From Mitosporidium daphniae (taxonomy: Eukaryota), in assembly GCF_000760515.2 (NCBI RefSeq), contig NW_013546178.1, positions 62,001 through 94,646 of the forward strand: 32,646 nucleotides of DNA. The letters run 5' to 3'. Below, piece by piece: positions 6,522 to 29,202 of this stretch (within the stretch, counting starts at the first letter, position 1; every line of letters begins with the position of its first letter). Position numbers and translations under genes: made by a program. Below the pieces are notes generated by a model. The model ran no database searches, had not been told where the DNA came from, and saw only the letters and a program-made list of their open reading frames with translations.

Positions 6522-6589
6522 AAATTGCCAATTAAAAATTACCCCAACTCGGTCAACTAACTGCCCTCCCCAATTTAAAATTTAAAAAT

Positions 6590-6662
6590 TGCGACCTGTG
6601 TGGATTGAACACACGGCCTTAAGATCTTCAGTCTCACGCTCTCCCAGCTGAGCTAAGGTCGC
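6590..6662 (-). tRNA. tRNA-Phe (GAA)
   Basis: Minus strand GCGACCT-TAGCTCAGCTGGGAGAGC-GTGAGACTGAAGATCTTA-AGGCC-GTGTGTTCAATCCACAC-AGGTCGCA forms a full 73-nt cloverleaf with anticodon GAA, followed by TTTTT (Pol III terminator). Confidence 0.97.
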
Positions 6663-6812
6663 ACCAAAAAACTGAGGAAAAAAAATTTGATATTTTATAA
6701 TACATTTTTGACACTAGATAGGCATGTTAATTGGTCTCTTTTCAATTCATGTATCAATTTAATACAATTTCATGCATCTTATGCAGTCCACCCTCCTATT
6801 GTCCCTCACAGC

Positions 6813-10603: not shown

Positions 10604-11791
10604 ATGCCCACAAAGGTAGTAGTTTTTGGTTCTGGCGATTGTGGGCAGCTGGGGCTTGGCGAGGATATTACGGAGCTGGAGCGGCCTATGGTGGTACCTT
10701 TTTTCGACGACAAAGACATTACCATTGTGAGTGCAGGCGGTCTTCATAATTTGGCCCTATCTTCGTCCGGCACACTTTATTCGTGGGGATGCAATGACGA
10801 AAAAGCCCTCGGTCATGATGAGCCAGAATGGAATATTGGAATCATTGCTCTTCCCCTTATGCCTTCCGAGCGGATCATTCAAATCACTTGTGGAGATTCA
10901 ATATCTGCCGCGGTGACTTCCCAAGGTCGTGTATATTCATGGGGTACGTTTAGAGATTCTCAAGGGGTCCTTGGATTTTCTCCCTCAAATACCCAATTAC
11001 AAGGAACCCCTCATTTGCTTGATACGAATAATATGAAGGTGGTTGACATTTCTGCTGGTGCAAATCATCTCGTTGCCATTGCGGGAGAAGCAAGAGATAC
11101 CCTTATTTCGTGGGGATCTGGCGAGCAGGGACAATTGGGCCGTCGTGTTTTGGCCCGCCATAAAATCAATGGATTACGGCCAGTAAATATTACCCCCAAA
11201 AAAGGCATTCTCTCTCAATATGGGCTCGCTTCTGGATCATATTCGCGAATTGCTTGCGGTTCATATCACTCGCTTGCCATTACATCTTCGCTTATCCTTG
11301 CCTGGGGTTTGAACAATTACGGCCAACTAGGAAACGGGGATTCGTCTGGATCCCAAATGCTTCCATACCCAACTGCCATTCCCAATGGAACCAGCATTGT
11401 TGATGTTTCAGCGGGAGAACATCACTCGTTAGCTTTGCTTTCAGATGGACGTCTCTTTGCATGGGGGCGCGGAGATAGTGGTCAATTAGGCATTTCAAAG
11501 GATTTTACCTCTCCCTCATACAGCCCTATGCAGGTGGCGCCGACTTCTTTTGAAGCTCCCGTTCAAATGATAGCTTCCGGTAGCAATCACAATTTGGCTG
11601 TAGATACAAATCAAAACATATATTCTTGGGGGTTTGGCGCAATGGGCCAGCTTGGTGCGGGCTCCGATGAAGATCGGCATGTTCCAGAGCGTTTGATGCT
11701 TCCAAAATCACTTGCTTCGCTTGCCGGGCTCAAAGTCCGGCAAATCCAAGCCGGTGGCCAACATTCTCTTTTGTTGGTTGAACATCATTAG
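10604..11791 (+). CDS. RCC1: RCC1 / Pim1 / Srm1 Ran GEF (seven-bladed propeller)
   Basis: Repeated RCC1 motifs GSGDCGQLGLG, AGGLHNLAL, YSWGCNDEKALG, YSWGTFRD, WGSGEQGQLGR, WGLNNYGQLG. Confidence 0.9.
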   Translation: MPTKVVVFGSGDCGQLGLGEDITELERPMVVPFFDDKDITIVSAGGLHNLALSSSGTLYSWGCNDEKALGHDEPEWNIGIIALPLMPSERIIQITCGDSISAAVTSQGRVYSWGTFRDSQGVLGFSPSNTQLQGTPHLLDTNNMKVVDISAGANHLVAIAGEARDTLISWGSGEQGQLGRRVLARHKINGLRPVNITPKKGILSQYGLASGSYSRIACGSYHSLAITSSLILAWGLNNYGQLGNGDSSGSQMLPYPTAIPNGTSIVDVSAGEHHSLALLSDGRLFAWGRGDSGQLGISKDFTSPSYSPMQVAPTSFEAPVQMIASGSNHNLAVDTNQNIYSWGFGAMGQLGAGSDEDRHVPERLMLPKSLASLAGLKVRQIQAGGQHSLLLVEHH

Positions 11792-13784: not shown

Positions 13785-13927
13785 AAAAAGAAATCTTGGG
13801 GTTAGTATGAAAGTAAGTAGCTTTAAAGATTGTACATTAGGTTTTAATTTTAGAAGCCACTCGATTGGCTTAAATTATTGCTATTGCACATTGAAAATGG
13901 AATTACAGAAAAAACTCTACCGCATAG

Positions 13928-14444
13928 ATGCACCACATTTGGGTTGTGCCAAATAGGGACCTTGATAAATGTTTGCCGCTCATACAGCAAATTGATAGAA
14001 AATGCTTCTCCAAAAAGGACTGTGTAATTAAAATGGACATGAAAGAAATTTTAAAGCCATCTGCGATTCTGATTTGCTCTGCTGTAACCGACCGGATAGT
14101 TGGATATGTCTTGCTGTCCTATACTCGTCAAGAAGCCTGCATGCGAGTATCCAAGGTTTTGACAGACATATATAATTTCCTAATAGATAGCTGTGCATCC
14201 TGAATTCCAAGGGAAAGGATTTGGCTCTCAATTGCTTGGAGAAGCAATAAAACTCGCCAGAGAAAGAAGGATCTCTTCAATTTTATTATACGTGGCTACA
14301 TTTAGAATCGCAGCAATTCAGCTGTATACAAAGCACGGATTTACCAAAGACAAGCTGTTATCAAACTACTATTGTTCATCACCAAGCTCCACCACGCACA
14401 ACGGCGATGCATATGAAATGCGGTTAACCCTTTCCATCGAGTAG
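13928..14444 (+). CDS. GNAT N-acetyltransferase (RimI/Ard1-like)
   Basis: Intron 14156-14186 gives RVSK|IAVHPEFQGKGFGSQLL (acetyl-CoA motif A), then AIQLYTKHGF and NYY...DAYEM. Start codon uncertain. Confidence 0.85.
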
Positions 14445-14598: not shown

Positions 14599-16229
14599 AT
14601 GATTTTCAAAGCCCCCATCCTCGTCTGTGTGTTGTTCCTCGTGCTATCTGCAATAGACCTGTATTCTTGTGTGCATGTTGTATCTTTAAATGAAGGAAAC
14701 TTTTCGCACGAGCTTGAGGGTAAAACTGCACTTGTCGTGTTCCAAACTAGCTGTAAGTTGCCTTGCATACTAAACATTTTTAGGGTGTGGACATTGCAAT
14801 AAGCTGAAGCCAAAGCTTGAGGAGGCAGCAAAAACAGTCTCCCAACTTGGCTTTAATATTTACTCGGTCAGCTGTGAGGATGATTCGCAACTATGTCAAA
14901 AATTCCAGATTTCCGGATACCCTTCTCTAATCCTATTCCACAACGCAATTCGCGTCAAAGATTATCCAAATAACGCTGCTAGAGAAGTTCCCGAAATTGT
15001 TGAATTTATCAAGAAGGAAAACAGCCCGGCATTCTCGACGATCAATTCTGATGAAGATCTTGCTGCCATGCTTTCAGACAAAACAGCATACTCCGTCATT
15101 GCAATCATTCCTGAAGATCATCCAAAAAAGCTCGAGGCTATTGAAAAAGTTGGAGCCATGGCCAGAGCCAACAGAGACTTGGCCTCGTTTGCCATTACCC
15201 ATCTTTCCAAAAGCGACCATTTGAAGCCATATCCTGAGGCAACCTTTTTAATTATCTCTGAAAATATTACCCATCTGACCAGCGACCTTTTGAAAGACGA
15301 TGTTCTTACGCAGGTTCATCGTTTGAAACTCCCTCTGTATGGAAAGCTTGACGAAGAGACGTATCAGTCGTATTCTGAGGCAAAGCTTCCAATTGGGTTC
15401 TTGTTTGTGACGCCAGAAGAGGCCGAAACATACAAGGAAATGATGACCGATATTGCAAAAAAGTTTTCCGATTTGATCTCTATCGTTTGGTTTGATTCCA
15501 CCATTTATGGAATATATGCCAACACGCTTGGTCTGTCTGGAATGAAATTTCCTTGCTTTGCAATCCATGACATGGAAACCGGATTTAAATTCCCATTTTC
15601 CGAAGACGTTCCGTTGGACTCTGATCATATTTCCAACTTTATTGAGGAAGTTTTTGCCGGAAAAATCTCGCCTTATTACAAATCGGAGCCGATTCCAGCC
15701 CACAATGATTCCGCTCCCGTTCAAAAGCTTGTGTTCAACAGCTTGAGCACGGTGCTTAACTCATCCAAGGCCGTTTTTATCAATTTTTGTGTGCCCAACC
15801 ACGAAGGATGCATTGCCTTTGCCCCAAACTACCTTGAATTGGCCAATTCGTTCAAGGACCAACATGATAAAGTCCTTTTTGTCGAATTTGACTTGAATCA
15901 AAACGACCTACCTCTTGAGATCGAGTCCACCATAGAAAAGATCCCCGCTCTTTATCTGTATTTGCCCGAAACAAAGTCCTTCAGTGAATTTGTCAAATTT
16001 GAGGGCAAGCCTTACAAAACAAAGCTTGCTGAATTTCTCGTGGCCAGTTGCACGTAAGTATTTGTTTTAATTTCGTAGGCATGGACTAAAGTCTGTTGTT
16101 GTTGACTCGGATGACCATATATCGCAAAATTATGAAAGCAATCATGGATATTTTGACCATGATGATGCAGACTCTGGATTTGGAAGCGATTCGATGGACT
16201 TTGAAGAGCCTAGCCATGATGATGTGTAG
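14599..16229 (+). CDS. Protein disulfide isomerase (a-b-b'-a'), copy 1
   Basis: Signal peptide. Intron 14753-14783 splits the Trp codon and restores WCGHC. Intron 16054-16078 adds an acidic tail ending HDDV*. The a' site is degenerate (PNHEGC). Confidence 0.9.
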
Positions 16230-16406
16230 TGCATGCGCAGTTTGGTTCATTAAAAAATTGCAATTGGCGTTTATTAAATTCACCATTTAAATTTTACCGA
16301 AACCCGTTTTGAAGTGCTACCAATTGGTGTGGAGGCATTGTAACTCTTTCCATTGAATTAGTCATATATAGTCCATTAAATTGCCCTTTCATTGTATCGT
16401 CTATTC

Positions 16407-18108
16407 ATGAAATTGGCGATCCCGCTTCTCATATTCTATGCCCAATCGGTGCTAGCAGGAGCAGATGTCCTTTTTAAACAAGAAATGATCACCTCGATCT
16501 CTTCAAAAGGCGAGCTGGACTCGTTTTTGGCAAATAATCCGGTATCTCTGGTTTTGTTTTTTGCTTCTTGTAACAGATTTGCAGCTTTTATTGTTCTAGG
16601 GTGCGGATTTTGCCATCTTGTTCTCTCCGAGCTTTCTATTGCAAAGCAAAAGCTATCTTTGCATCCAGATGGTGCTGTTTCTCAAACCCCCGGGATCGCA
16701 AGCATTCGTTGCGATACTGCGAAAACTCTGTGCGACTCGATGAAGATTGACAACTACCCGAGTCTGCTTGCCTTTATGTTTGTCTTTGCCTATTTTCTAA
16801 CCGTCTAGGAATGGGGCGTATGTAAAAGAGGTCTTTAGTTACGAGCACAAGAGGGTCATTGACTTGCTTCAAAAGTAAGGCGTGCACGTATTTTACGCCA
16901 CTAGATTCGGCGCCAATTCTTTTGTTGAGCTCAGTGAACACTCTGCCATCACTGCGTTCTCATCAAAGGCAACTTCGGTTGTCGGATGCTTTACGGAGGC
17001 TTCGGATCGCAAGGCATTTTCAAAACTTGCCGAAGAATCCACAGATCTTTTCCATTTCGGATTGATATCCAAAGAGCTTTGCCCATCTATCTGCAAGGCA
17101 CCCATGGTGAGGATAACCGACGCTTCCGGATTTCAAGAGGAAATTGAGTGGGACAGTGTCAGGTCCAATTTTACCTCCACTTTACTGGCTCGCTATTTGC
17201 CGCTGATATCGGACTACTCGCCTTTGGACAATGCTCTCCTTCGCCATTTATCCGGCTTGCCGGTCGGGGTGTTCTTCTATTTGCTTCCAGAAGACAGGAA
17301 CATTCTGCAATCTAGAATCGACTCTATGCTTCAAAACTACCGCCATAAAATTACATTTGTCTTTGCCAATTGGATAGAGTCTGAGCATTTGGCAAGGGAA
17401 TTCAAAATCCAAGAGCCAGTTTCGTGTGCCCTGCCCACTTTGTCTGTTGGATTTATCGAAAAGAAAAGATATTATTTATTCCCCGAATGCGGCCTTGCCA
17501 CTTTAACGCCAGAATCGATCACAAGCTTTTTGGATGCGATTTTCGAGCACAAGATAGAACCATACTCTCGGTCGGAAGAAAGATTGCACCCTCAAGGCGA
17601 TCTAAATGAAGATCCCAACGAGGATATGTCTTGCGAACAGGACGATAACTGTATTTCTGTCCTTAATAGGATCACTCATGATACTTTCCAGCATAGCGTC
17701 CTTGATGCCACAAAAAAAGAGCCGGTTCTTGTACAGTTGTATGCGGATTGGTGCATAGAGTGTCAAGATTTTGGAGAGGTTTTCAAATCCATCGCCACAA
17801 AGCTTGATAAAAGGGCCAAGCTCGTTTCGCTGAATGTTGATTTTAACGATCTTCCAAAAGATTCTGGAATCGAGAAACATAAGCGACTTCCTGAGATCTA
17901 TCTGTATCCGAAATCCCCGGCCCATTCATCTTGTCAAGCAAGCCATCGCAACTGCACCGTTTTTATGCCGATTAAATACCAAGGCCCCTTAGAATGCGAG
18001 TCTATTATCGAGTTTTTTGAGAAGAACAAGGAGTATAATACCCTGGCGACATCTGCAGCCCACGCTGCAAGCGGCAGTGAATTTACGGCTACTCATGAAG
18101 AAGTTTGA
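16407..18108 (+). CDS. Protein disulfide isomerase-like, copy 2
   Basis: Signal peptide. Introns 16570-16599 (restores WCGFC), 16778-16808 and 16875-16904. Second site YADWCIEC. Ends HEEV*. Confidence 0.87.
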
Positions 18109-25157: not shown

Positions 25158-27677
25158 TTACGCCTTCCCTGGTGTCGGTTGGAACATGTTCATGGTAAAG
25201 GCAATCCCTGCGGCGTCTTCGGCAAGAAGGGGATCCTTTCGGACGGCCTTGGAAAATGCTTTCAAAAACGACGAGCGCTCCTTGGAAAAAGTCAACGGAT
25301 TTGAAGAGGGTCCTCTTGGATAATAGGTGATTCCCAAAGTTTCCAAATCACATCGGATGTAATTCTGCAGCAGGCGATGTCTCTCCACTTGGCGACGCGT
25401 GTCAAGCGTCAGCTTACAGGGAATCCTAAATTTCAACGTAAGAATATCCAGATTTTCCCCAATAATTGGGGTAAAGTCTGGCTCAAAGCTGCCATGAAAC
25501 AGATGCCTTCCTTGTGTCTTCAGAAATTCGGTTAGCCGAGCACGAAAGGCGTAAATTTGCTCTTCCGTTGTGTCGCAGCCTAGATACAGATTCACCTGCT
25601 CCCATTGCTCGTTAGAGCGTTTCCAATTGGTGATGTTCTTGCGAAGAAGCACCGGGTTGGGCATGTATATCTCGACTCCTGTGGAGTCTCGCATGGCAGT
25701 TTTCAAAACATCCACGCGGGAAATCACATAGCGCTTTGGATCGCCCTCAACGGTAACCTCGTCGCCAATATCAAAGGGATGGCACACAAAAAGGAACATC
25801 AACGAGTCAAAGGCGCTTTTTGCCCAATCGCCAATGACCACATTTAAGGCCAAGATGAAGGAAAGTGTAAGGGTCAAAATAGAAGAGACATTGGCACCCC
25901 AGATTACCCCGTAGATTAAAAGAAGGATTAGAGAAGTGGAAATGTTTAGTACCATATCCAGGGCTCTCAAAGCTTCTGCAGAGGAAGAAACCGAGCGTAC
26001 CAAATTGCGATAATCCTTATGAACCTGCACAAAGACTTGCTTGAGCTCCGAACGCGTTACATTTCCATCGAGGTTCAAATCAAACACAGAATAGATCTCC
26101 GAAGCGGCCTCCTTGGACGCAAAAAGACGGAAAAAGTCACCCTGGTGAAGAGGGGGCACAAGCAGGTCCTTGCTGTAATACCCAGAAGGAAGAAAAGACT
26201 CTCCTTCAGGCTTGTGGGCAGCATTATCACAATTTAGGTCAATGGAGGGGTTCTTTCCACATGTCAAGACGTCAAAGATGAACGCCCCTCGCTTTTTACA
26301 TTCTGGAATTGGAAGCCCCACATCGGATGAAGATGTCTCCTTTGCTATCATGAGGGAAAAATCAGGTCCAAAGATTCCGACGTTCTTTTTGAAGGTGGAA
26401 AAGTTGACCCAGTCTTTTTCTGTCAATAGGCGCAAGTCTGAAGCGTTTGAGGCAAAGTTTGTTCCCTCAATTGAGCTGCTGGTGACGCCAAAAAGATTCC
26501 TGAGGGCCCGGACAAGTCCTTCTGCCTGGATTACAGGAGTCGTCATGGGCCGTGTCTGCTGGTGATGAGAGGACGATGCATTTAGAGGGAGCAAGTTATC
26601 TTCATCGTCGTCCCTGTTCAAAGAATAGTACTCTTCATCGACATCGTCATCAAGATCATCTTGGGTCAGATTGCAAAGCTCTTCTTCTTCATTTTCGCCA
26701 TCCTCCGCATCTGATTCTTCATTGAAAGAGTTCATGGAAGAATAGATGGCCGAGCGAGGTCTTTTTGGCTGCATATTGGCTGGCGTATAGAGCAGCCCCT
26801 TTTTGGCACCCTCAAATCTGCACACCGAAAATAGGAGATGTGTCACAAAGAGATGGTACCGATTGAGTAAAATTCTATCTCGATATACCTGGTCCTGATA
26901 AAGGATGGATGCCAGCATTACCAGAATCTTTGATACTGTGACTCCAATAAGCGTTACCAACGCACATTTGATGGCCTTTTTTGCAATAGAAAAGGCATAA
27001 ACACAAGAGGAATCTTTTTCTCCGCCACTTCCGTCGCCTTTTCCGCCTCCATTCTGATCGTCTTTTCCGCCTTCTTCTTCTGCGTATGCATTCAAAAAAT
27101 GGGGATCTTTGAAAGAAAAGGAAGAAAGTTTGAATTGTTCCATAAAAGAGGAGAGAATGGGGTCGGTTATGGCATTTCTATTGGAAGCTTTAGTATAAGA
27201 ATTTTCACTGATGGTATCTCTGCATTGTTGCGGAGTATAAATGTCCAAAAGAATAAGGGCAGCAATAAAATAGAAGCTCATAATTATTTTGGTTCTAGAT
27301 CTTCTCAATACGCGAACAACATAGAAATGTCTCCTTGGTGTCACTTGAACACTGATATCCTGCAGTATTCGTACACAAAAAGAGATCAAGAGCAACACCA
27401 AAACATTACTTGCAATTAAGATGGTCCAGTCGTAAAGCGATAAAAAGTACCATGTGGGGCCTTCCCCTCCTCCCTCAAATATGTATTTGTACGCCAGATA
27501 TGGCAATGAAATAAAAATGGGAAACAAGAACAGATATAAGAGGTGCTTTTTTAAATAGCCGGAAAAGTTTGATGTTCTACTATTAACCAAAAGAGCATCG
27601 TCATCATCATCGTCTTCGTCTTCCAGTTGTGATGAAGTTCTCCCGGTAAACCGGACCTTTTTTTCTCTCGGGCTCAT
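25158..27677 (-). CDS. MscS-like mechanosensitive channel with EF-hand (Msy1/Msy2 type)
   Basis: Multiple TM segments, EF-hand FDLNLDGNVTRSE, MscS motif FLFVCHPFDIGDEV...MPNPVL...ITNWKRS. Confidence 0.92.
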   Translation of the reverse strand: MSPREKKVRFTGRTSSQLEDEDDDDDDALLVNSRTSNFSGYLKKHLLYLFLFPIFISLPYLAYKYIFEGGGEGPTWYFLSLYDWTILIASNVLVLLLISFCVRILQDISVQVTPRRHFYVVRVLRRSRTKIIMSFYFIAALILLDIYTPQQCRDTISENSYTKASNRNAITDPILSSFMEQFKLSSFSFKDPHFLNAYAEEEGGKDDQNGGGKGDGSGGEKDSSCVYAFSIAKKAIKCALVTLIGVTVSKILVMLASILYQDQVYRDRILLNRYHLFVTHLLFSVCRFEGAKKGLLYTPANMQPKRPRSAIYSSMNSFNEESDAEDGENEEEELCNLTQDDLDDDVDEEYYSLNRDDDEDNLLPLNASSSHHQQTRPMTTPVIQAEGLVRALRNLFGVTSSSIEGTNFASNASDLRLLTEKDWVNFSTFKKNVGIFGPDFSLMIAKETSSSDVGLPIPECKKRGAFIFDVLTCGKNPSIDLNCDNAAHKPEGESFLPSGYYSKDLLVPPLHQGDFFRLFASKEAASEIYSVFDLNLDGNVTRSELKQVFVQVHKDYRNLVRSVSSSAEALRALDMVLNISTSLILLLIYGVIWGANVSSILTLTLSFILALNVVIGDWAKSAFDSLMFLFVCHPFDIGDEVTVEGDPKRYVISRVDVLKTAMRDSTGVEIYMPNPVLLRKNITNWKRSNEQWEQVNLYLGCDTTEEQIYAFRARLTEFLKTQGRHLFHGSFEPDFTPIIGENLDILTLKFRIPCKLTLDTRRQVERHRLLQNYIRCDLETLGITYYPRGPSSNPLTFSKERSSFLKAFSKAVRKDPLLAEDAAGIAFTMNMFQPTPGKA

Positions 27678-27878
27678 TGTGCGGTGATGGGCCGCAAATG
27701 CATAGATTTAAAGAGCTAAGGGTTCTTCCCATAGGTGAATTGTGAAGTTCTGCTTTAAAATTCGGCAAATAGGCACTTTCCGTTCTTTGTGTGATGGTTT
27801 CAGACAAAATTTAAAAATCCACATTTTTAAAAGAGACTCCAAGTGAAGTACGTTGTGAATTGTACTTAACCCTAATTC

Positions 27879-28390
27879 AAAAAGTGCACACTCCATTGCA
27901 TAAAAGGCCTGGAACGCCGCAAATGGCACGAAACCCCTGAAATGCGGGAACGGCACATGTCCGTGCGGTCATACATACGCGCATGCATTGCCAAAAGAAT
28001 GGCATGCAATTGGATGCTTGCAAACACCCTCATTTCACAGTTGAATTAATTTGAAATTTTCGGGTCAAATCAAATTAACGCGTTTGCTCACATGATGTAC
28101 AATTGCTCGTGTGTGCTAAGCAAACAAGTAAAATCAGCACGCATTAAGAATTTGGCTCCACAATATCCGTTCACAAAGCGGCCTTTATGTATGCAAGACC
28201 AGAGCTATTGCAGCATCCTGGGCGTCCCATGTTTGAATTGGGGTTGAGACACCTGGTGAGCTTCAACCACTCACTGGTGCAATCGACGGGTTTAGGGTTA
28301 GAGAGCCAACAATAGCGCCTAAATCGAACCGAGAGCGCCACAGCTAATCTGAAAGACACCCGTCTATGATAGCTTGGAATTTCCAAATTC
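27879..28390 (-). ncRNA. Candidate telomerase RNA (TTAGGG-type); ends approximate
   Basis: Template CUAACCCUAA at 28301-28292. Boundary hairpin 28341-28334/28319-28312. H-type pseudoknot 28140-28082 with UUUU loop. Core-enclosing helix 28352-28343/28079-28070, 28362-28358/28065-28061 and 28389-28378/28058-28048. G-U wobbles favour the minus strand. Folded by eye only. Confidence 0.7.
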
Positions 28391-28391
28391 A

Positions 28392-28403
28392 TTAAAAAAT
28401 CGG
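28392..28403 (-). promoter_or_regulatory. CCGATTTTTTAA putative core-promoter/TSS motif directly upstream of the ncRNA candidate
   Basis: Identical 12-mer just before the TAF9 ATG (1746-1757). CCGATTTTAA variants upstream of ATG7 (22750-22759, +) and USP (22683-22692, -). Confidence 0.4.
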
Positions 28404-28414
28404 GTACGGCTTTC

Positions 28415-29174
28415 CTAGCTTTTTTTGGCAAGGTTTGGACAGTCCGTTATAACGGCGTTAAATCCGGCTGTTCTTGCCATTTCAATGTCTGCCGTTGAGT
28501 TCAACACCCATACAAATATCAATTTGTGGGCTTGATGGACACGATCAATAACCTGAGATGGAGCTTTTTTGACGGCATCCCAATCGATGGAAAAAATGTC
28601 AATCAGGTCAGAGGCCAATGCTTCTTCTGGAATAGCCAATGAAGAGGTCGATTTTGGGGGCCAATGCTCGTGAATCAGCATGATTTGATGGCGGTTAGCA
28701 AATAACTCCTTCGCCTTGAAGAGGAACTCTTGGTTCCACACCCCTAGTATTAGCCTTTCGGGAGTAAAATCATGTATCGATAGGATCGCTTGTAATTTAT
28801 CAAGAATCGCAATAGGATTGTCCTCCTTGATGTCTAAAACAACCGTACATCGGTCATAGGGTGGCTGCAGGAGAGAATTCAACAGGTCCTTCAGCAAAGG
28901 GATGCATTGGCTTTCGTTTTTTGTTCTCAAATGGTCAATGTAGCCGTGATATGGAAGATCACTAACCACGCCTGTTCCATTTGTTGTTCTATCAACCCTA
29001 CAATAAAGGAAAACAAACCAACGTAGTATCGTGCATCAAAATGATCTCGTCATCAGATGTGATTCGCAAATCGGTCTCAATCCCCATAGCTCCCGCGTCT
29101 ATAGCTTTAAGGTGCGATAGAATAGTATTTTCGGGATACAAATGGCAGAAGCCCCGATGCCCAAATATAAGCAT
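28415..29174 (-). CDS. Glycerophosphodiester phosphodiesterase domain protein (Pgc1-like)
   Basis: MLIFGHRG...PENT...IETDL...LMHDTT|VDRTTNGTG via 25-nt intron 28998-29022; C-terminal VWVLN...VITDCP. Confidence 0.9.
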
Positions 29175-29202
29175 CTCGTGAATTTAAAATTTTATTCTTC
29201 AA

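Follow-up and report, generated by a model that had tools for sequence, protein, structure and literature searches.

A candidate telomerase RNA in the intergenic gap between the GDPD and MscS genes of Mitosporidium daphniae

The 737-base gap between the GDPD and MscS-family genes of Mitosporidium daphniae may well encode the telomerase RNA (TR) of this organism, with a length of roughly 300-510 nt. The probability of this reading, which is a model built on the sequence, is put at about 0.57. The DNA analysed (the window) is a stretch of 32,646 nucleotides from contig NW_013546178.1, and all positions are counted from its first letter. The candidate and both neighbouring genes lie on the minus strand, and helix strands are given in the 5′ to 3′ direction of that strand. 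An earlier note on this DNA had proposed a TR core here. All of the motifs that it quoted were found on the minus strand where it had placed them, and its drawn pairings for the enclosing helices, the boundary hairpin and both pseudoknot stems are valid. The identity that it assigned is partly supported. The order and spacing of the elements match the core described for known TRs (PMC9841428, PMC3592445). On the other hand, no P6.1 was found, the predicted fold is at a disadvantage as long as the template is free to pair, and telomere-like words are over-represented. The features are collected in Table 1.

Table 1. Candidate TR elements and flanking genes, in window positions.
Feature	Position	Strand	Basis
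GDPD gene	28415..29183	-	Pfam PF03009, ORF list
Outer enclosing helix, 5′ strand (local hairpin preferred; weakly supported)	28378..28389	-	folding
Middle enclosing helix, 5′ strand (pairs with 28291-28285 in the competing fold)	28358..28362	-	folding
Inner core-enclosing helix, 5′ strand (P1c-like)	28343..28352	-	folding
Predicted template-boundary hairpin, 8 bp with 3 G-U (strands 28341-28334/28319-28312)	28312..28341	-	folding
Predicted template (10 nt; complement of 1.67 TTAGGG repeats)	28292..28301	-	sequence search
Linker, 151 nt, two or three hairpins	28141..28291	-	folding
Predicted H-type pseudoknot	28082..28140	-	pairing and descriptor
Enclosing helices, 3′ strands (28079-28070, 28065-28061, 28058-28048)	28048..28079	-	sequence and folding
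Possible distal domain: multi-way junction enclosed by an 11-bp helix (28037-28027/27948-27938)	27938..28037	-	folding
Run of five U, possible 3′ end or Sm/Lsm-like site	27879..27883	-	sequence reading
Second telomere-like word, 9 nt (27867-27875), in a 17-nt inverted repeat arm	27865..27881	+	sequence search
MscS-family gene, downstream	25158..27677	-	ORF, PF00924

The gap is non-coding. No ATG-initiated ORF of 100 aa was found inside it by the ORF scan. A small protein was rejected as an explanation: for nine stop-free frames that lie inside the gap or overlap it, Pfam returned nothing above its cut-off (best E = 0.23). The Rfam search returned neither a telomerase family nor any other family over the candidate at E values up to 10, and the sole match at gathering score in the window was a tRNA. 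A tRNA-Phe(GAA) gene is located at 6589-6663 on the minus strand. The GDPD stop codon occupies 28417-28415, at the alignment column where two related proteins (P0130 and P0131) also terminate. Its distance to the first helix strand, which is on the same strand, amounts to 25 nt. An intron of only about 25 nt seems to interrupt the GDPD gene itself at approximately 28998-29022 (minus strand), as read from the sequence.

The predicted template is the only telomere permutation of at least 10 nt in the window, and the earlier note had described it correctly as about 1.7 copies of the TTAGGG complement. It was divided into six templating nucleotides at the 5′ side and four alignment nucleotides at the 3′ side, a register that would write GGTTAG. 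The human TR has the same register and the same template length, and 10 nt falls in the known range of about 1.5-2 repeats (PMC4993307). The template word alone proves little, because the Markov expectation for such 10-mers is 12-28 per 5.8 Mb (0.07-0.16 per window). Moreover, TAACCCT was observed seven times in the window against 1.69 expected, which is an approximately fourfold enrichment (P = 0.008 without the candidate). Telomere-like words are found, for instance, at 14425, 19311, 20507, 20913 and 27867 on the plus strand and at 13799, 14780 and 28292 on the minus strand. Eight of the 11 telomere-like runs other than the candidate are outside the 23 listed long ORFs, which cover 70% of the window in a list that omits some ORFs. 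The second word in the gap lies 416 nt from the template in inverted orientation, and some 190 bp separate it from the MscS start, which is downstream of it. Its partner arm, at 28232-28248, contains a third related word. No inverted repeat in the gap is longer than the 17 bp formed by these two arms, which pair throughout on the plus strand when two G-U pairs are counted. Read on the minus strand, the 9-nt word is also a complement of the template. A plus-strand TR using this 9-mer was rejected, as it failed the pseudoknot test even with loose rules.

The excess of telomere-like words is possibly the trace of a Tbf1/Myb-type regulatory motif in this genome. The strongest rival explanation follows from it: the template word would be a DNA site for a Myb/telobox (Tbf1-like) factor, placed in the MscS promoter or in a GDPD terminator, and the helices around it would fit by chance. 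We regard this as somewhat unlikely. It is favoured by the over-representation of TAACCCT, by the position of most other runs outside the listed ORFs, and by the two related words in the same gap. Yeast Tbf1 is known to bind TTAGGG words at many promoters (PMC6410037). A DNA site, however, gives no reason to expect a hairpin next to it, a pseudoknot, and a helix that closes 2 nt after the pseudoknot.

The hairpin that precedes the template ends 10 nt before it, as had been claimed, and its pairing probability was 0.93 in the unconstrained ensemble. An alternative extension of this hairpin reaches the edge of the template. A hairpin of the boundary type is also found at 1,838 of 12,800 real positions in the window. 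The enclosing helices comprise an inner helix of 10 bp (two G-U), a middle helix of 5 bp and an outer helix of 11 bp with one bulge and no G-U pair. Of 2,000 shuffles with the same composition, 10 reached the -20.5 kcal/mol of the arm duplex, as did 642 of 6,460 window pairs of the same geometry in real sequence. Folding was then carried out in a constrained ensemble, in which stem 1 of the pseudoknot was forced, while the template, the 9 nt on its 3′ side, both strands of stem 2 and loop 1 were kept unpaired. Without being forced, the inner helix (0.97), the middle helix (0.96) and the boundary hairpin (0.98) were predicted to form, and the outer helix reached only 0.02. The nested core-enclosing helix of the earlier note is predicted in its inner and middle parts only when the template flank is kept open, and its outer part is unsupported. 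Since the outer helix does not form, the core may start nearer to 28362 than to 28389.

The predicted pseudoknot is composed of a 7-bp stem 1 (28140-28134/28119-28113), a U-rich loop (28133-28126) and a 6-bp stem 2 (28125-28120/28087-28082) with three U-A pairs. The earlier note had named the U-A-U triple-helix pseudoknot as part of the conserved TR core. The stems, the U-rich loop and the three U-A pairs are there, but the U-A pairs stand two pairs off the stem junction, with one C-G and one G-C pair in between. In the human TR, the triple helix sits at the junction (PMC4993307), and a C-G.U triple has been proposed in Aspergillus (PMC3603654). In the light of the Aspergillus proposal, the offset weakens the case without being decisive against it. 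The stacking energy of the pseudoknot is -22.5 compared with -17.3 for the nested alternative, before any pseudoknot penalty. Seven comparable pseudoknot loci were counted in the window. In the linker, the further hairpin drawn by the earlier note was found at 28280-28249, with one and two unpaired nucleotides where dashes had been written. The segment 28217-28202 could pair with the long pseudoknot loop in a P2a-like manner, with a probability of 0.05 in the constrained ensemble. As this pairing was matched by 50-91 of 2,000 shuffles and by 845 of 6,490 real windows, it is only weakly unusual and was dropped as an independent test.

The arrangement as a whole was assessed with a joint descriptor of three elements: a boundary hairpin 5′ of the template, a U-rich H-type pseudoknot 3′ of it, and a helix that closes directly behind the pseudoknot. 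The controls were Markov sequences and local shuffles in which the template was planted. The candidate passes the loose, intermediate, medium and tight settings. Under the loose rules, 480 of 1,500 Markov sequences and 498 of 1,000 local shuffles also pass (32-50%). Under the medium rules, all three elements were found in three of 12,000 Markov sequences and two of 6,000 local shuffles (5/18,000), and under the tight rules in none of the 12,000 and none of the 6,000. In the real window, 26 of 12,800 positions pass the medium rules, or 10 after dropping the 16 that use the pseudoknot of the candidate itself, and 68 of 6,292 positions away from the candidate pass the intermediate rules. Among the 12 telomere-like runs of at least 7 nt, the candidate alone passes the intermediate and medium rules; three others pass the loose rules. 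Because TAACCCT is about fourfold enriched, 50-110 template-like 10-mers were assumed per genome, and simple arithmetic gives 0.01-0.09 chance matches per genome for the medium rules and 0.5-1.2 for the intermediate rules. The latter estimate, roughly 0.5-1 per genome, would suit a DNA site with fortuitous helices, whereas the medium and tight results, together with the failure of every other telomere-like word in the window at the intermediate level, argue against it. All of these figures are a guide rather than a P-value, since the thresholds were set after the candidate had been seen and are uncalibrated on known TRs. The combination of template, hairpin, pseudoknot and enclosing helix is rare under rules of middle strictness.

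The energetics are less favourable to the TR reading, and a fold that is not the preferred one also speaks for the DNA-site explanation. When the 3′ flank of the template was free to pair, a 7-bp helix (28364-28358/28291-28285) closed around the template with a probability of 0.997 and the enclosing helices dropped to 0.003. Another strong competing helix is 28390-28383/28155-28148. The free fold has an energy of -101.8 kcal/mol, and the best template-open fold, with stem 2 excluded, has -89.8. For the comparison, the hairpin term of 6.6 was removed, the -10.4 of stem 2 was added and a pseudoknot penalty of 10-15 kcal/mol was applied. With this penalty included, the telomerase model lies about 5-10 kcal/mol above the free fold. 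Therefore, the help of a protein would be needed.

The preference for one strand was also determined. The 347-nt core segment folds better on the minus strand (z = -2.15, 3 of 100 shuffles) than on the plus strand (z = -1.31, 14 of 100). In the wider gap (27860-28395), by contrast, the plus strand is preferred (z = -2.96, 0 of 100 shuffles) over the minus strand (z = -1.87), because of the 17-bp inverted repeat with its plus-strand G-U pairs. The argument that G-U pairs point to the minus strand is therefore weak.

The competing helices, the plus-strand z value and the perfect inverted repeat are what would be expected if the gap made a different structured RNA, such as a folded 3′ UTR of GDPD, a folded leader of MscS, an RNA from the plus strand or a housekeeping RNA that has diverged. 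This explanation is judged to be unlikely. It would agree with the finding that no AATAAA-type signal occurs within 200 nt after the GDPD stop codon, but many other ORF ends in the window are likewise devoid of one. Words in the gap resemble the consensus words of RNase P and U5; these are incomplete, however, and common across the window. The key words of RNase P, U5, SRP, U1, U2 and U6 are absent or incomplete in the gap and were rejected. In Rfam, RNase P, MRP, SRP, snRNA and snoRNA models gave no match above chance in the gap. The order of template and pseudoknot would stay unexplained by any of these RNAs. As a separate observation, 27908-27855 (minus strand) contains a word that falls a single base short of the U5 snRNA loop; a U-run and a small hairpin come after it, and Rfam gave no U5 match there. 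A small non-autonomous transposon at 28050-28390, whose inverted ends would mimic the enclosing helix, is very unlikely: direct repeats of 5 nt border the segment on both sides (28045-28049 and 28391-28395) and the outer helix is free of G-U pairs, but the repeat is A/T-only and could easily arise by chance, the inverted ends are short, unevenly interrupted and not flush with it, and the window holds no second copy (best other BLAST match E = 0.24).

A TR also requires comparison with those already described. Similar to what is predicted for the candidate, the TRs of Pezizomycotina and Taphrinomycotina (Neurospora crassa TER, S. pombe TER1) have a template for TTAGGG with a local boundary helix on its 5′ side, a pseudoknot of two contiguous stems whose first loop is rich in U, and stacked enclosing helices (PMC3592445, PMC3603654). 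Differences are seen in three respects. First, fungal TRs measure 900-2,425 nt (PMC8480181), whereas the candidate would have about 300-510 nt. Second, the TRs of Pezizomycotina and Taphrinomycotina differ from the candidate, in which no P6.1 was found. Third, the boundary helix of Aspergillus is mostly 2 nt from the template (PMC3592445, PMC3603654) and that of the candidate 10 nt, unless the alternative extension forms. The TRs of echinoderms and protostomes, which carry a P1.1 hairpin and an eCR4/5, resemble the candidate as modelled in size range, P1 enclosure, P1.1-type hairpin, P2b/P3-like pseudoknot, a possible P2a-like extension and the lack of P6.1 (PMC8480181, PMC4993307). Unlike in non-vertebrate animal TRs, no box H directly after a P4-like helix and no H/ACA layout were found in the candidate, and its U-A pairs are off the junction. 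The Ustilago maydis TER shares with the candidate a core directly downstream of a protein-coding gene on the same strand (PMC9564094). It is 1,291 nt long, has a canonical CR4/5 with P6.1 and is hosted by Emi1 (PMC9564094), while the host of the candidate would be GDPD in a putative precursor relation. The TR candidate of Lichtheimia, which is unvalidated, is likewise a computational proposal from a fungus outside Dikarya; it is ciliate-like and has no homologs in other basal fungi, (PMC4133162), in contrast to the animal/fungal type of pseudoknot and enclosure predicted for the present candidate.

P6.1 is thought to be ancestral to fungi and animals (PMC8480181). It is present in basal animals, filamentous fungi and Ustilago and absent in echinoderms, protostomes and trypanosomes (PMC3592445, PMC9564094, PMC4993307, PMC8480181). 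With a consensus taken from PMC3592445 (4-bp stem, NUNGN loop), no P6.1 was detected on the minus strand between 27650 and 28450; the nearest form is one 3-bp version at 27932. No ANANNA word occurs on the minus strand from 28029 to 27801, and no hairpin-box H-hairpin-ACA layout was found. The candidate would operate in the manner of the animal/fungal template-pseudoknot core, but by these tests it belongs to neither the CR4/5 (P6.1) nor the H/ACA class. The possible distal domain (28037-27938) has a fold that is not above chance (z = -0.83).

The ends of the RNA were considered from signals in the sequence. No TATA word is present in 28450-27680. Only 25 nt remain for a promoter after the GDPD stop codon, so the promoter would be inside GDPD or the RNA would be cut from a read-through mRNA. 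The latter route has been shown for the U. maydis TER, which is cut from the mRNA 3′ UTR of emi1 (PMC9564094). The loop of the boundary hairpin (28330-28320) contains a word at 28329 that resembles a tRNA T-loop or B box but misses the last base of the consensus (PMC5499648). No A box was found upstream of this word. On the 3′ side there are a U-rich word at 27998-27991 and a splice-site-like hexamer at 27978 that lacks a downstream branch-point consensus and occurs nine times in the window. The 42 nt from 27978 to 27937 run from this 5′ splice-site-like hexamer to a pyrimidine-rich AG, with no branch-point consensus inside, and may possibly act as a cleavage signal or be spliced as an intron from the MscS leader.

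In the TR model, a minus-strand RNA would start just past the GDPD stop codon. Its folding, which probably depends on bound TERT, would yield a ring, with the enclosing helix placing the U-rich pseudoknot beside the template. TERT would pair the chromosome end with the four 3′ letters of the template and copy the six 5′ letters, thereby adding GGTTAG. Synthesis would stop at the boundary hairpin, and TERT would then translocate. The downstream junction of 100 nt would serve, if anything, as a stimulatory domain without P6.1. The RNA, of about 300-510 nt, would arise by cleavage of a transcript that reads through from GDPD, or its transcription would begin at a promoter within the GDPD coding sequence.

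A more specific version holds that this is a miniature TR of about 300-500 nt from the microsporidian stem lineage, P6.1-less and promoterless, and cut from the 3′ UTR of the GDPD mRNA. We consider this version unlikely. If true, it would represent a second, independent origin of an mRNA-derived TR and the smallest TR on the fungal side of the tree. The lineage of Rozellomycota and Microsporidia branches at the base of the fungi, and Mitosporidium, a parasite of water fleas, is placed close to the microsporidian root. A TR from this position would show whether the ancestor of fungi and animals had a short RNA with P1, P1.1 and a pseudoknot, and it would test the ancestry of P6.1 and which 3′-end pathway arose first. 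The candidate is likely, though unconfirmed, to be the first TR for this lineage. None is reported for Rozellomycota or Microsporidia in the literature searched, and a published prediction may have been missed. In a survey of microsporidian ncRNAs (PMC5499648), the word telomerase does not occur. Telomere repeats in microsporidia vary among TTAGGG, TTAGG and TTAG (PMC12449221), and this shift provides a built-in test of covariation between template and telomere. A model from the slowly evolving Mitosporidium could seed the search for TRs in true microsporidia.

Related sequences were also sought. A degenerate pattern of the pseudoknot gave no match in metagenome contigs. A scan of the same kind of contigs with a pattern from the MscS alignment gave 594 pattern matches, none of which was confirmed as a relative. 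Related proteins exist for both neighbouring genes: for MscS, P0122 and P0128 are 88% identical over the searched region and P0123 78%, and for GDPD, P0130 and P0131 reach 62% and 47%. For RCC1 (10604-11791), the named relatives include Amphiamblys (44%) and Rozella (44%), and closer proteins reach 81% (P0001) and 67%. From two sequencing runs presumed to be RNA, all contigs fell within the MscS ORF (26857-27633), at a depth of about 2-6; neither the candidate nor GDPD was covered, and the runs have no bearing on the candidate either way. One low-depth DNA run (X17), the only one touching the gap, showed no differences across its partial cover. The genome is compact and Rozellomycota-like in the window, with short intergenic gaps and a GC content of 44.8%; the M. 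daphniae assembly of 5.83 Mb has 42.68% GC and carries the TTAGGG repeat on one contig (PMC12449221). Elsewhere in the window, adjacent ORFs at 15068-18108 (plus strand) are thioredoxin- or protein-disulfide-isomerase-like by inspection and form a tandem pair or one split gene. DNA runs from zooplankton and invertebrate metagenomes are among those containing sequence of the window.
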